DNA of 22,857 bases, taken from the IMG/VR virus record IMGVR_UViG_3300028887_000098; one strand, given 5' to 3'. Origin of the DNA: a virus. Taxonomy: Duplodnaviria; Heunggongvirae; Uroviricota; Caudoviricetes. Shown here in pieces: positions 138 through 22,541 of this stretch (positions are counted from its first letter, which is position 1; each line of letters starts with the position of its first letter). The translations under genes were made by a program, and so were the position numbers. A model generated the notes under the pieces. It worked only from the letters and a program-made list of their open reading frames with translations, ran no database searches and had not been told where the DNA came from.

Positions 138-145
138 TATAAATA
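138..145 (+). promoter_or_regulatory. T4-type late promoter TATAAATA
   Basis: Exact consensus, 4 nt before ATG 150; gp55 is encoded in the window. Confidence 0.75.
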
Positions 146-12256: not shown

Positions 12257-13198
12257 TTATAAGTGCGGCATGCTAGGCATTGATGGCTTCGTAGCATGAG
12301 GAATATTCGGCATTTGAGACTTTGCTTTTGCAATTTCTTTATTATTTGCCTCATTTTCTTCTTCAATCATCTTATTGATAATTTGTTGTTCTGCTTCTAC
12401 TTCAACCCAAGCCCATTCATTTGTTATCTGTAAATTTGAATACTTTGCAATCCTTGTGATAGTTTCAAGAATCTGTAATAAGTCAACTTTACTAAATAAA
12501 TTCTTATCACTGATTTCAATTTTTACATTATGTGTTTTACCACATTTTGGACAAGAAATTGTAAAATCTTTTTTAACACCACAATAATTGTCTGCTATAT
12601 GTGCTTTTAAAATTATAAAGTCATTAGCTGTTAAATTACTAATAAAAGAGTATTTTTCTTCCATTGTATTAGCGGTATCAATGTATAAACATAGTTCATC
12701 AATATCATCATTGATTTCATAAATTGAATCATTATATCTAGGCATTTTGATAGGTAATGTAATACCTAAATCTGGTAGAAATACTTTATTAACAAAAGGA
12801 TGATCTAGATATACAAATTCTAAGTCGACTAATTTAATAATATGTTCTATTCTTGACTTACAACCAGAACATGATGGAATGATTACAGTAAAACCATTAC
12901 CGTTAATAAAACTATTCAATCTAATCCAGAAAATAATAAATTCTCTATCAGCTAAAACCAATTCTTCATATTTTAAATTTTCAAGAATAGTGCATTTTTC
13001 GATAAGTTCATTACAAATATCTGTTGCATTTTCTTCTCTTAAAGAAGCAAGATATTTTACTTCAAGAACAGTCATTGAACGTGCTTTTATCTTTGCATTC
13101 TTCGAATATAAAACACCTTTTGATGGCAATTCATTTAAATCGATTTGCCAGAAGTTGAACATATCATAATTATGCATTATATTATTTGTTGTTTTCAT
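12257..13198 (-). CDS. Baseplate hub subunit (gp26-like), possibly with gp51-like C-terminal module
   Basis: ELPSKG...RSMTVLEVKYL...LADREFIIFWIRLNS...CSGC...CPKCG. The true start may be ATG 13177 or 13162. Confidence 0.7.
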   Translation of the reverse strand: MKTTNNIMHNYDMFNFWQIDLNELPSKGVLYSKNAKIKARSMTVLEVKYLASLREENATDICNELIEKCTILENLKYEELVLADREFIIFWIRLNSFINGNGFTVIIPSCSGCKSRIEHIIKLVDLEFVYLDHPFVNKVFLPDLGITLPIKMPRYNDSIYEINDDIDELCLYIDTANTMEEKYSFISNLTANDFIILKAHIADNYCGVKKDFTISCPKCGKTHNVKIEISDKNLFSKVDLLQILETITRIAKYSNLQITNEWAWVEVEAEQQIINKMIEEENEANNKEIAKAKSQMPNIPHATKPSMPSMPHL

Positions 13199-13868
13199 CG
13201 TTATTATCTCCAGGATCCGCTAATAATTTTACAGTTGCAGTTCCATTAAATATACCGCCGCCAGGAGTAGTTCCTACTGCGACACCAGTCATTGGAGGCG
13301 ATGTAGTTATTGCTTTCTTTAAAAAATTTTCAAATTCAGTCCAAAATGCCTTAAATGTATCTGGACTTTCTGGTGGTTCTGTTTTTATTCTATTAATGAA
13401 TTTTTCACCAAAAACATAAAAATGCGGAGTAGGAACTCCACTAGGAATAGTACCCGTAATCATAATAGGATTTACATATGCGCCAGCAGATATTCCTAAA
13501 AATTTTGGCCATAATGCAGATGTAGTTGACCAATTAATTGTTGCCTGTGTAATTTTTATTCCAATGTAATTAAAAATCATCGGAAATATTTTTTCCTGAA
13601 ATGTAGAAAATGCTTTTAAATCAGTAGGGTTTATATTAAGAGATTCTGCTATAGGTTTTAAACCATTATAATAAAATGGTGTACTAACACCCAAAAGCTG
13701 AGGATAAGTAACTACTCCAGCAACAGAACCATATTGAATAATTAACCTTCTATCAAACCATTCATTTAGTGCATTTGCAAGAATATTATAAAATGTTCCT
13801 GGTGGCGATGTACTACTTAATGTTTTTAATTTTGGATATATTAAACTATAAATTGATGAGAATTCCAT
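13182..13868 (-). CDS. Hypothetical protein (Pro/Gly/Thr-rich, probable structural)
   Basis: 228-aa ORF with TAATG coupling to the terminase C-half. Confidence 0.75.
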   Translation of the reverse strand: MEFSSIYSLIYPKLKTLSSTSPPGTFYNILANALNEWFDRRLIIQYGSVAGVVTYPQLLGVSTPFYYNGLKPIAESLNINPTDLKAFSTFQEKIFPMIFNYIGIKITQATINWSTTSALWPKFLGISAGAYVNPIMITGTIPSGVPTPHFYVFGEKFINRIKTEPPESPDTFKAFWTEFENFLKKAITTSPPMTGVAVGTTPGGGIFNGTATVKLLADPGDNNDENNK

Positions 13869-14923
13869 TATTTAAAGTCACTCCAGAAATCATCGTTATA
13901 TTCCATTGCATCAGCCATCATATCGACTGTCATATTACTTATTTCTTTTGTCACTTCTTTAATCTTGATATTGTCCATATCAATTTCTGGTTGCAATGTT
14001 GCGTAAACTGCCCAATACAAAGCTGAAACAGTATCGTCGTGATTTCCTTTTGCCGCTTTAAAGACGTTTGGTGATTGTTCTTCAAATCTTGAAAGTTCTG
14101 AAATTGTAACACCATCATGAATTGTAAGAATTTCAGCATCAATAACTCTCTGTAATTCAAGACATGCGTCAAGCTTAGAACGCTTATCAGATTTAGTTCC
14201 TAATCCTTTACCTGCTTTTTCAGTATTTAAAAGATTTGGATTTTCAAGAGTATACCAAATTTCTTCTACAACTTGTTTACCTGGGTCATTATTTTCGATA
14301 ATGAACGAAGCATCGTTATACATTTTTGAAACTTTATCGATAATTCTAGCAAATTCACCAGGTTTTACCGTATTGGAACGATAAGTAGCAACTTGTTCCA
14401 TGTGATATTTGTCTTTAATTTCAATAACCTGAATGCAAGCATAGTCACCACCAACACCTGCACAAGGGTCACATCCCATCAAATAGAAATGTCCTGCTTC
14501 TGGTCTTTTATAAATTGAAAATGACAAATCTTCAAATTGAACTTCTACAGGTTCCATTTCAACAAGTTTTTCAAGAACGTTACCGCTAATCAAAGTGTTA
14601 GAAGAACCAATGAATGAACAGTTATGATGAATAATTCCATTCGTTGTTTCATATAATGCACCGTCGATATTAAGTGGAGTATAAACAGTCTTGACTCCTA
14701 CTTCTTCTATTTGAAGTACTCTACTTATCCCAAATGTATTGTTTTTGACTGTAGAACCACGTTTAAGATCTTTTGCATATACATCCTGATTTTCAGGACT
14801 CTTAAATCTATGGTCTAATGAACAAGTAATTTCAGAATTATCAAATATAATATGTATTGATTCAGCAGTTTTTTTCTGAAATCCATCAAATTTTTTAAAG
14901 GTGTCACCAATCTTAATAAGCAT
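13868..14923 (-). CDS. gp17: Split terminase large subunit, C-half: IntC (101 aa) fused to the gp17 nuclease domain (250 aa)
   Basis: The extein begins CSFIGSSNTLI (gp17 C-x-F-x-G-S-x-N-T-L-I) and contains YLMGCDPCAG, IIENNDPG and KGNHDDTVSAL RNase H-fold motifs. The N-terminal 101 aa are intein-like. Probable start ATG 14923; the extension to 14995 reads through promoter DNA. Confidence 0.9.
   Translation of the reverse strand: MLIKIGDTFKKFDGFQKKTAESIHIIFDNSEITCSLDHRFKSPENQDVYAKDLKRGSTVKNNTFGISRVLQIEEVGVKTVYTPLNIDGALYETTNGIIHHNCSFIGSSNTLISGNVLEKLVEMEPVEVQFEDLSFSIYKRPEAGHFYLMGCDPCAGVGGDYACIQVIEIKDKYHMEQVATYRSNTVKPGEFARIIDKVSKMYNDASFIIENNDPGKQVVEEIWYTLENPNLLNTEKAGKGLGTKSDKRSKLDACLELQRVIDAEILTIHDGVTISELSRFEEQSPNVFKAAKGNHDDTVSALYWAVYATLQPEIDMDNIKIKEVTKEISNMTVDMMADAMEYNDDFWSDFK
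14621..14923 (-). mobile_element. C-terminal fragment of an atypically split intein (TerL-type IntC)
   Basis: Block B-like TCSLDHRF, AKDLKRG, block F-like VYTPLNIDGALY, block G TNGIIHHN then +1 Cys (codon 14618-14620). No block A Cys1 segment upstream. Confidence 0.85.
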
Positions 14924-14957
14924 AATAATCTCGATAAAATAAACAGAATATTTTATA

Positions 14958-14965
14958 TATTTATA
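14958..14965 (-). promoter_or_regulatory. T4-type late promoter TATAAATA (for IntC-gp17C)
   Basis: Exact consensus 34 nt upstream of ATG 14923; back-to-back with the plus-strand promoter. Confidence 0.7.
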
Positions 14966-14976
14966 ACAAGTAAAAC

Positions 14977-14984
14977 TATAAATA
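14977..14984 (+). promoter_or_regulatory. T4-type late promoter TATAAATA
   Basis: Exact consensus followed by AAAAGGA and ATG 15013. Confidence 0.75.
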
Positions 14985-15012
14985 TTATAAAACAATTAAA
15001 AGGATTTAAAAT

Positions 15013-16359
15013 ATGTTAAATTTAGATGTAACTCCTGCAAAAATGAGCTGTGAAGAAATCAAGTCATGGCTTACAGAATGTGCTGCAGAAATTAGCAAGG
15101 CATATGATGAAGACAATATTGCCTATGCAAATAAGCTTGATACAATTTATCAAGTTGTAAAGCAAATGGGCGAAGAAAAATGTAAAAATGAATCTTTTAG
15201 AGGATATTTAAGTTCTTCAATGTTAACTGAATCTGTTACAGAAGAAAGTTCAAATCCTACATATTTAATAGAAGTTGATGAAGCAATTATTTCATTTGAA
15301 GACAAATTGAAAGATTGCGATGTTGAACTTGACGCAAAGGTAACAGTAGACGATAATTTAAATATTATTGATTTTCCACCTATTACAGTTGATATTGGAT
15401 TTAAACTTCCGTATATTGATGAAAAACAGCATATCGTTTTAACATATACTCCTAATGGAATGCCTGAAAATTTAAATATTGACAATATTCCAGCAAAAGA
15501 TTATACTACTAGTCATACTGAAACAGGAACTGTTGTTTCATTCAAATCTCTCGGTAATTTAGCTGATAATCTTGAAGAATTTGAATTTACTGAAACTATT
15601 GAATGGCCATTTGAAATGGATTTCAAATCTGCTACGGTAAAGAAAAAATTTGATAAAATTAAAACTTTATCTGGAAAGATTATTGCTTTGCTTGGTAAAG
15701 ACCAATTAATTAATAAAGTTAGTGGTTATCAGTCTACACACTCTTCTGGTTCTAATAAAGCAACAAGAGCTAAGAGAGAAGCTGAAGCACTTAAAGCAAC
15801 AATTCGTGCACGTGGTCCGTTCAAGTCTAGAACTGAAATTCTTAAAGATACACTTAGTGCAATTCCAGGTATTACTTCTATTGAACAGTTACCTGTTATG
15901 GGTAATCAGCAATATTATACCAAATTCCGTATTACATTCAAGGGTGGTTGGTTTGATGTTTTCAATGGCGGTATGAATTTCAGAGTAATGGACAGTCTTG
16001 GTGGTTTCGGTAATAATCAGGAATTTAGAACTGATCCAAGTGATCCAGATGCATCTGTTACAAAAACACGTAATAAAGTTGTTGCATATATTCAAAAACG
16101 TATGGAAGATATGAAGATTGCAGCATTAAGTCCTAGAGAACGTGCAGCATTAGCAGCAAAGAATAAGCCAAAACAACGCGATTTAACGACTGAATATAAC
16201 GAGTTTATTGAAATGGCTACAAATACCCTTAATGGAACAAATCCAGTTTCCAGAAGCGTCTTATCGGACAAATATGACCATCTCATGTATAGTGAGCGAT
16301 TCTTAACTGATGAGCAAATGACTAAACTTATGGAACTTGTTACAGAGTTAGATATTTAA
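15013..16359 (+). CDS. Hypothetical late protein, probable head/internal protein
   Basis: 448 aa; late promoter and SD; NESFRGYL...MLTESVTEE motif. No homing-endonuclease motif recognised. Confidence 0.75.
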   Translation: MLNLDVTPAKMSCEEIKSWLTECAAEISKAYDEDNIAYANKLDTIYQVVKQMGEEKCKNESFRGYLSSSMLTESVTEESSNPTYLIEVDEAIISFEDKLKDCDVELDAKVTVDDNLNIIDFPPITVDIGFKLPYIDEKQHIVLTYTPNGMPENLNIDNIPAKDYTTSHTETGTVVSFKSLGNLADNLEEFEFTETIEWPFEMDFKSATVKKKFDKIKTLSGKIIALLGKDQLINKVSGYQSTHSSGSNKATRAKREAEALKATIRARGPFKSRTEILKDTLSAIPGITSIEQLPVMGNQQYYTKFRITFKGGWFDVFNGGMNFRVMDSLGGFGNNQEFRTDPSDPDASVTKTRNKVVAYIQKRMEDMKIAALSPRERAALAAKNKPKQRDLTTEYNEFIEMATNTLNGTNPVSRSVLSDKYDHLMYSERFLTDEQMTKLMELVTELDI

Positions 16360-16447: not shown

Positions 16448-17746
16448 TTAGATAGAACCGTAATCAGTTAATCTTGCAGCAACATCGAGGAAACTGTCAT
16501 AAGATTCTTCAGTTTCAACTGTTTCTTTAAGAATTCTGCCACCTAAGCGATTTGCACGTCTTGATTCAGCAACTTCGGCTGGTGCTTCATCATTGAGGAA
16601 TTCTCCTTCGTCAACAACTTCATATTCAGCACCATTATTATCTAATGTACTCTGAATTGCATCCAACTTATTAGCTGGAGCAGTAATAAGAATATATGGT
16701 CCATTGACTTCAGAAGAAACATCAAAGCTTGGTAAAATGTCTTCGATAACAACTTGAACATCATTTGCATTTGCAAACTTTAAGCAACGATTTTCATCAG
16801 CTGGTGCTTCTGGAGCTTGTGCTGCTGGGTTAACGAATTCACCAAAGTCAGCGAGAACTCTCTTTGCAACGTCAACGTTTTTCTTTCTACCGACATTTCT
16901 AATTGTAAATGTTCCGTCTTCATTTTCAGTATAATCAACTTCATTACTATTAAGTCTTGTTCTGATACGTAATGGCGAAACACCTTCATTTGGCTTAAAT
17001 ACTGCAATTCTACCAGATGTAAGCTGATTATTAGCATTATCACCAGTTGCAATATCAAGCTTGACATATAAACCGTTGACTTTTTCTTTTTCTTCTGCAG
17101 TAAGTTCTGCTTCACGTGCGGCTAATGCATCAATACGTGCTCTAATTTCATCTGCATTGTTACCACCGCGTCTGAAAGAAGAAATAGAAGAACTAATACG
17201 TCTAATAATATCTGATGGCGTAAGAGCACCATCATCGCGAGAATGAGTTGTTCTTGCTTGTCCTTCATCAGTCCAACGACCTTGTGGAATACCATCACCT
17301 TCTTCAACACATTGGTTGATATATGCACGTTCTTTCTGCAATTCGCTTAAATATTCCTGATTACCAGATTCTGGGAATGCTGCAAGAGCTGCATCAAAGT
17401 TAGCCAAAAGCGTTTCTGCGGTCTTTTGAGACATACCCTTACTATTAGCACTCTTGAAGTCATTTTCAACCTTAGAAAGTGCTTCAGCAACGCCAAATTC
17501 CTTGCTTGCACCTCTAACTGTTAAATTGACTGTACCGGCATTTTCAAGACCGCTAAAAGAACCAGTATAACGACCATTAAAACGTGCCATTTCAGAAAGA
17601 ATCTGATATGCCTTTGTTCTTGTTGCATTACGAGATTCCATAGATTCCATTAAATCCTTGACGGTTTTCTTAAAATCATCTTTAGATTTAGTATTAACTG
17701 AGTAACCTACAGAACCTAAAATTTTCTTTGCTTCGTTTAATTCCAT
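16448..17746 (-). CDS. Hypothetical late protein, probable head/internal protein
   Basis: 432 aa; MELNEAKKIL N-terminus, LMES and LKET motifs; late promoter and AGGAG SD. Confidence 0.75.
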   Translation of the reverse strand: MELNEAKKILGSVGYSVNTKSKDDFKKTVKDLMESMESRNATRTKAYQILSEMARFNGRYTGSFSGLENAGTVNLTVRGASKEFGVAEALSKVENDFKSANSKGMSQKTAETLLANFDAALAAFPESGNQEYLSELQKERAYINQCVEEGDGIPQGRWTDEGQARTTHSRDDGALTPSDIIRRISSSISSFRRGGNNADEIRARIDALAAREAELTAEEKEKVNGLYVKLDIATGDNANNQLTSGRIAVFKPNEGVSPLRIRTRLNSNEVDYTENEDGTFTIRNVGRKKNVDVAKRVLADFGEFVNPAAQAPEAPADENRCLKFANANDVQVVIEDILPSFDVSSEVNGPYILITAPANKLDAIQSTLDNNGAEYEVVDEGEFLNDEAPAEVAESRRANRLGGRILKETVETEESYDSFLDVAARLTDYGSI

Positions 17747-22533: not shown

Positions 22534-22541
22534 TATTTATA
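22534..22541 (-). promoter_or_regulatory. T4-type late promoter TATAAATA
   Basis: Exact consensus, 4 nt before ATG 22529. Confidence 0.75.

Follow-up and report, generated by a model that had tools for sequence, protein, structure and literature searches.

We identified, on the minus strand of a 22,857-nucleotide stretch of tailed-phage DNA (IMG/VR record IMGVR_UViG_3300028887_000098; this whole stretch is hereafter termed the window), a gene that is very probably the C-terminal half of a naturally split large terminase of the T4 type (TerL, the gp17 of T4). The product of this gene is composed of two parts, a C-terminal intein fragment (IntC) followed by the nuclease domain of TerL. The counterpart, an ATPase domain that ends in a short N-terminal intein fragment (IntN), was located in relatives, and in a complete relative it is encoded tens of kilobases from the nuclease half. 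We favor a reading, to which we assign a probability of roughly 0.85, in which two late genes would produce the precursors ATPase-IntN and IntC-nuclease and these would be joined by class-1 trans-splicing to form TerL.

The open reading frame (ORF) of the nuclease half was found to encode 351 amino acids (aa) and to close with a TAA codon at 13868-13870 of the minus strand (Table 1). A longer frame opening at TTG 14995 was rejected, since the homologues begin at Met 14923 (a start shared by about 47 homologue clusters with products of 344-354 aa) and the TTG is upstream of the promoter box described below; ATG 14923 is therefore taken as the real start. Within residues 1-101, the intein blocks B (CSLDH, with His38), F (VYTPLNIDG) and G (NGIIHHN) were recognized. 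The last of these is followed directly by Cys102 and CSFIGSSNTLIS, and the linker motif reads SFIGSSNTLISG. In protein splicing, the +1 Cys is the nucleophile of the transesterification step. A preliminary description of the window, made from its letters alone, had read the same 351-aa ORF from ATG 14923, with a 101-aa intein part ending in HHN and the gp17 nuclease behind it, and this was borne out by the sequence and by Pfam analysis.

Terminase_6C was the sole Pfam match of the 351-aa product (E value of 2.5e-12; 47.5 bits compared to a cut-off of 22.6), and no ATPase domain was detected by this search. When the C-extein was compared to T4 gp17 (Protein Data Bank [PDB] entries 3EZK and 3CPE), E values of about 1e-20 were obtained (best, 9e-21) and the alignment opened exactly at the gp17 AFEGTSGTLISG motif, which marks the start of the nuclease domain. 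An AlphaFold2 model of the gene product was built on 29 homologues and had a mean predicted local distance difference test (pLDDT) score of 82.8. By use of Foldseek, the C-terminal part of this model was found to superpose on the nuclease domain of RB49 gp17 (3C6A; template modeling score of 0.90 by target). Residues D152, E210 and D296/D297 were invariant among 29 homologues and aligned with acidic residues of T4 gp17. With a profile score above the cut-off, an RNase-H-like fold and the acidic triad all in place, the nuclease domain is complete and of the T4 gp17 type.

The residues that precede the nuclease half were similarly examined. By phmmer search of PDB sequences, IntC was matched to 6DSL_B, 'Consensus engineered intein CatC' (E value of 1.5e-5, residues 7-105, 28 bits), with the gp41-1 intein as a weaker match; the resemblance to an AceL-TerL-type IntC, which the preliminary description had pointed out, was in this way recovered by search. 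No family was returned when residues 1-101 were searched alone against Pfam, and no PDB sequence was matched by the 45-aa IntN region, a query that is too short. The AlphaFold2 model's N-terminal portion matched the inteins VidaL (6VGV), gp41-1 (6QAZ) and DnaX by Foldseek, and low confidence was assigned to the junction residues 99-106, which is to be expected while the active site is unassembled. Among 29 C-halves of 28-88% identity, His38 of block B and Asn101 were invariant and His100 and Cys102 nearly so, and Cys1 was invariant in the alignment of N-halves. The residue set of class-1 inteins (Cys1, block-B His, penultimate His, terminal Asn and Cys+1) is present. The ratio of nonsynonymous to synonymous substitution rates (dN/dS), as determined against relatives of 91% identity, was 0.07 for IntC and 0.06 for the nuclease extein; IntC is under strong purifying selection, on a par with the nuclease. 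At one position of block F, this clade has Thr followed by a nearly invariant Pro (VYTP), whereas Asp is found in Cat and in distant relatives.

The insertion site of the intein was found to be the ATPase/nuclease junction of the T4-type terminase, with the N-halves stopping at the end of Terminase_6N, and to be identical to that in Serratia phage 92A1; the exteins were compared at the residue level with T4 gp17 and phage 92A1. The split is atypical, with an IntC of 101 aa in the window and an IntN of 35 aa in a complete relative of 91% identity. On sequence grounds, the intein is a new and divergent member of the atypically split TerL family that includes AceL-TerL, GOS-TerL and the consensus Cat (PDB 6DSL).

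When the partner was sought, neither the window nor the rest of its 36,968-bp record, a fragment estimated by CheckV to be 9% complete, was found to have a match to Terminase_6N (PF03237) or to the ATPase half of the relative. The statement of the preliminary description that the window has no ATPase half was upheld and extends to this record. By contrast, a partner was present in a complete IMG/VR relative (G001) of 415,750 bp with direct terminal repeats, which has a C-half protein of 91% identity and aligns collinearly with the record of the window (81-85% nucleotide identity). G001 was found to have only one Terminase_6C ORF, the C-half at 45231-46283 (minus strand), and two Terminase_6N ORFs. 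One of the latter ends in ...QQEYA followed by Cys, 34 further residues (CLTGEHKITV...) and a stop codon, that is, a 35-aa IntN with block A. An ORF of this kind (an ATPase with the conserved end, then Cys plus an IntN of 25-40 aa and a stop) had been predicted in the preliminary description, and it is the only IntN-carrying partner for the single nuclease domain of G001. The two halves are on opposite strands, transcribed away from each other, and separated by 58,647 bp as measured in this one complete genome.

Related halves were found to be common. A search with the N-half returned 496 proteins, and about 115 of the 120 clusters listed end in QE[YF]x, continue with C[LIC]xG... and 25-35 residues, and then stop; many of these homologues are on contigs of 200-680 kb. 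With the C-half as query, about 75 clusters were revealed in which IntC is fused to the nuclease, the most distant at 28% identity. At none of the clade loci fetched (C-half extein identity of 43-100%) was a partner half detected in the flanking 4-10 kb, which, together with the distance in G001, agrees with the earlier proposal that the halves are unlinked. More distant relatives differ in layout. At an IMG/VR locus of 34% identity (L014), the halves are about 1 kb apart. In the cultured Serratia phage 92A1 (OR088902, Straboviridae), a terL N-half, a GIY-YIG gene and an IntC-nuclease gene follow one another in order, the N-half ending in ...QEH before Cys and about 36 aa and the IntC ending in THN before Cys; its C-half is 33% identical to that of the window. 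Vibrio phage vB_VmeM-32 (KU160494) has a one-piece 704-aa terL with a homologous insert, to which the window's product aligns over residues 9-350. Since distant relatives keep the halves together, the unlinked layout is a derived state, one that this clade has passed on stably. The samples in which the clade was found here are mainly from bovine gut and rumen.

A 335-aa gene was observed directly upstream of the N-half of G001, overlapping its start (L025:294-1301). Its product has a C2H2-like finger, a DUF7487 match (E value of 8e-19) and a C-terminal part with weak likeness to endonuclease I and PD-(D/E)xK enzymes. This gene is missing in a second lineage (L117) and reduced to a 48-aa remnant in a third (L121-L123; L121:2866-3012). 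Judged from these features it looks like a sporadic homing endonuclease, located beside the N-half and not between the halves.

Whether the two intein fragments are compatible was addressed by structure prediction, in which residues 1-115 of the window's product were folded with residues 262-306 of the N-half from the 91%-identical relative, which supplied the IntN. The complex received a score of 0.84 compared to 0.01 for the best control, a mark of 0.84 being reached by 51 of 78 solved complexes and by 2 of 108 mismatched pairs. Three runs shared at least 81% of contacts, with a partner pLDDT of at least 78. The predicted interface places IntC residues 99-102 and 32-39 against the junction residues 270-284 of the partner.

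Expression of the halves was approached by way of the T4 late-promoter box, TATAAATA. This box was found 14 times in the window versus 5.1 times expected, a number reached in none of 100 shuffles, and 12 of the 14 boxes lie a short way before an ORF start of their own strand. The preliminary description had noted back-to-back late promoters upstream of the gene; two boxes on opposite strands do stand back to back within the 89-bp spacer (Table 1). In both the 91% and the 76% sublineages, the minus-strand box occupies the same place (-41 to -43) despite a differing flanking spacer, and N-half genes that are free of the endonuclease were found to have the box at -45 and -56. Each half has a late-type promoter box of its own, in line with the earlier suggestion of independent transcription. 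In a lineage of 68% identity (L022), the C-half gene abuts regA and has no box; a dedicated promoter is therefore not universal. From the boxes, both terL halves are probably late genes. A 197-aa ORF with weak sigma-factor likeness is situated 1.7 kb downstream of the gene, a position that is kept in distant relatives. Most of the gene is overlain by metatranscriptome contigs (95-99% identity), all from a single study; there was no cover in the bin 14881-14941, which holds the start codon (14921-14923), and cover was near zero up to about 14995.

According to the reading that we favor, the gene in the window, probably driven by a late promoter of its own, would produce a precursor of IntC (101 aa) and nuclease domain (250 aa), and a second late gene elsewhere in a genome of about 400 kb would produce the ATPase domain (about 271 aa) with a 35-aa IntN. 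The short IntN would dock into the nearly complete IntC to generate the HINT fold, and class-1 trans-splicing by Cys1, the block-B His, the C-terminal His-Asn and the +1 Cys would join ...QEYA to CSFIGSS..., with ...QEYA-CSFIGSSNTLISGNVLEK as the junction peptide. The resulting full-length TerL of about 521 aa would package and cut DNA.

Several points weigh against this reading. We infer the splicing itself, the late timing and the position of the partner in this genome, and the partner was found in relatives and not in the window's own incomplete record. The RNA-library contigs over the gene neither show nor exclude its transcription or the start of it. The IntN used in the complex fold was that of a relative and not of this phage, and the high score of the predicted complex may reflect likeness to the solved Cat intein (6DSL), such that it is not independent proof. 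With Thr in place of the block-F Asp, the kinetics of splicing may differ from those of Cat. In addition, the relative encodes a second ATPase, an ATPase-only paralogue that is devoid of an intein.

A two-chain terminase that functions without splicing, with the intein fragments serving as a tight docking module for the ATPase and nuclease chains, is considered quite improbable. Precedent for such an assembly is provided by the fragmented NrdA of Aeromonas phage Aeh1, which is reported to be held together by interaction domains derived from a mobile element (PMC3045599). The predicted IntN/IntC complex likewise speaks to docking and not to chemistry, and this clade has Thr where the block-F Asp would be. 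This explanation is nevertheless disfavored because residues needed only for the chemistry are conserved: Cys1 of the N-half and Asn101, His100, Cys102 and His38 of the C-half are invariant or nearly so at 28-88% identity. Furthermore, AceL-TerL, GOS-TerL and Cat are all active in splicing in vitro (PMC11766414).

More improbable still is that the C-half is partnered by the intein-less paralogue or acts by itself, as a free nuclease for headful cutting or maturation; in that case, the IntN-bearing ATPase would be of secondary importance. The two Terminase_6N ORFs of G001 both have Walker A and B motifs, and the paralogue is 41% identical to the IntN-bearing half. It stops exactly seven residues beyond the splice junction, QEYA[V/C]EFIGS[K/N], an ending common to more than 50 clusters (255-262 aa) on contigs of up to 427 kb; it has the look of a truncated copy of an intein-free terL, with the cut at the junction. 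A conserved family of this form, ending precisely where the nuclease half would be joined, is consistent with a role as partner. However, a partner without IntN would leave the strongly conserved IntC (dN/dS of 0.07) unexplained, the search with the paralogue returned 85 proteins (some of them N-halves) compared to 496 for the N-half, and the IntN/IntC pair is predicted to dock.

The gene was also compared to public assemblies. An exact look-up of the window's protein gave no match because of a one-base difference at position 13953, which is A in the window and T in record G000 and results in V324 versus E324, respectively. Both alleles were found in public bovine-gut runs, and the difference is a natural polymorphism. 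The protein with E324 was detected on 8 independent contigs (ENA, JGI and Logan; several samples), and the three of these loci that were examined had the same neighbors, among them the divergent gene of 448 aa. The stretch 14923-15013, for which the preliminary description had asked that assembly continuity be confirmed, is spanned by tiling DNA contigs from two further studies of bovine gut. Although the window's record is an incomplete metagenomic contig, the probability that the gene is a misassembled or decayed piece of terL, coexisting with an intact copy at another place, is negligible, mis-assembly being ruled out by the 8 contigs and the DNA contigs that tile across the junction, and a pseudogene by the strong purifying selection and by the single nuclease domain of G001, which has no intact terL, with the architecture itself recurring in about 75 homologue clusters. 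Thus, what the preliminary description had named as evidence that would speak against it was absent: we found no mis-assembly, no intact gp17 elsewhere in G001, and no N-half that lacks an IntN.

With regard to the surrounding genes, the 228-aa gene that overlaps the stop codon of the nuclease-half gene is probably co-transcribed with it. The order of C-half, 205-228 aa gene, baseplate-hub gene and sigma-like gene is kept in relatives, and that of the first three was traced down to 37% identity. On the opposite side, ORFs of 448 aa (15013-16359, plus strand) and 432 aa (16448-17746, minus strand) were found between regA and the terminase half, neither with a match in Pfam or PHROG. Both ORFs are present in the 91% relative and absent in L022 (68%), where regA abuts the terminase half; the pair is a lineage-specific insertion. 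In two RNA libraries, both of one study, contigs were found to start at 14995 and 14999, 11-15 nucleotides past the plus-strand box, and DNA contigs continue across these positions. The RNA-contig ends hint weakly that transcription of the divergent gene may start here.

Four other boxes of the window (138-145, 1539-1546, 2824-2831 and 22534-22541) end only 4-5 nucleotides before annotated ATG codons (150, 1551, 2836 and 22529, respectively). With a gap of this length, a start site of the T4 kind would lie on the start codon or past it. Either the true starts of these genes are further downstream, or leaderless mRNAs are made, or the boxes belong to other genes.

Table 1. Features of the nuclease-half gene, its surroundings and the ATPase-type ORFs of the complete relative. 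Positions refer to the window unless G001 or L026 is named.
Feature	Position	Strand	Basis or remark
Whole gene, IntC fused to TerL nuclease half	13868..14923	-	351 codons plus TAA stop; ATG 14923
IntC fragment, residues 1-101	14621..14923	-	CatC match, conserved residues
+1 Cys codon (Cys102), first C-extein residue	14618..14620	-	nearly invariant; at predicted IntN interface
Remaining C-extein, residues 103-351	13871..14617	-	FIGSSNTLISG linker motif, RNase-H-like nuclease domain, acidic C-terminal tail
Terminase_6C (Pfam), residues 149-306	14006..14479	-	D152, E210, D296/D297 invariant
IntN-bearing ATPase half, 306 aa	G001 104931-105851	+	ATPase domain of about 271 aa, then IntN
ATPase-only paralogue, 258 aa	G001 300756-301532 (= L026:1315-2091)	+	Walker A/B; no intein, no nuclease
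TATAAATA box, candidate T4-type late promoter of nuclease-half gene	14958..14965	-	42 nucleotides before ATG 14923
TATAAATA box for divergent gene starting at 15013	14977..14984	+	enrichment and position
Downstream 228-aa gene	13182..13868	-	ATG overlaps TAA by one base (TAATG)
Baseplate-hub gene (T4_baseplate), after 228-aa gene	12257-13198		order conserved in relatives
Candidate gp55-like late sigma factor, 197 aa	11577-12170	-	Sigma70_r2 (E value of 7e-4) and PHROG 'late sigma transcription factor' (E value of 2e-4), both weak

TerL is a hallmark gene by which tailed-phage genomes are recognized, classified and judged for completeness. The large clade of uncultured rumen phages described here has it as two distant half-genes only, and automatic annotation will therefore call TerL truncated or missing. 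The layout has been stable over long evolution, as C-halves that have diverged to 37% identity share it, and the sequences suggest that an essential enzyme of virion assembly can rely on trans-splicing between loci tens of kb apart. It is a tentative and unlikely thought that the separation of the halves in this clade of phages of roughly 400 kb is no frozen accident but belongs to a regulated packaging system, in which trans-splicing would determine how much nuclease-competent TerL is made, or when, and the conserved paralogue would either enter the motor as a subunit without nuclease or be a competitor for it; if true, this would be a packaging motor of mixed composition, which is unknown in tailed phages. 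The clade provides dozens of natural variants of short-IntN split inteins from a habitat at body temperature, a type that is already valued for protein labeling. The preliminary description had proposed a candidate new split-intein tool; the intein is indeed a new family member, but the family has been known and engineered since 2009-2017, such that these variants extend the known toolbox and open no new one. The findings are useful for annotating the genomes of huge phages and will be no surprise to an intein specialist.

Compared to GOS-TerL (Dassa et al. 2009, PMC2677866) and to AceL-TerL and Cat (reviewed in PMC11766414), the intein of the window has the same host protein, a gp17-type TerL, and the same HINT fold. 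The split is also alike, with an IntN of 25-37 aa and an IntC of 104-115 aa in those systems and of 35 and 101 aa here, and Cys1 and Cys+1 are as in AceL and Cat. By contrast, the sequences are far diverged (28 bits to CatC), block F has Thr and not Asp, and the halves do not share one locus but, in the relative, are on opposite strands at a distance of about 59 kb. The source is likewise different, a mammalian rumen at about 39°C as opposed to an Antarctic lake or the ocean.

Fractured genes have neighboring halves on either side of a free-standing homing endonuclease (Dassa et al. 2009, PMC2677866). Systems of this type, including that of Serratia phage 92A1, resemble the one described here in having the intein at the same junction and a similarly short IntN. 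They differ in that the halves are here unlinked, with no endonuclease beside the C-half: the N-half is absent from the 36,968-bp record and from the 4-10 kb flanks of the clade loci, and a 58.6-kb gap separates the halves in G001. The term 'fractured', which the preliminary description had applied to the gene, therefore does not hold in the strict sense of Dassa et al. (2009), as the halves do not flank a homing endonuclease. No paper describing unlinked terL halves in phage genomes was found in literature searches, which did not extend to the primary papers on AceL-TerL, GOS-TerL and Cat.

Vibrio phage vB_VmeM-32 has a homologous IntC-like segment followed by the nuclease, in a one-piece gene the product of which would splice in cis. 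The unlinked layout is unusual but not unprecedented. The two halves of the cyanobacterial DnaE split intein are encoded far apart on the chromosome. In both DnaE and the TerL described here, an essential enzyme is encoded in halves at distant loci, to be joined (for TerL, probably) by trans-splicing. DnaE differs in being a cellular replicase with a canonical split (long IntN and short IntC) and in belonging to an unrelated intein family.

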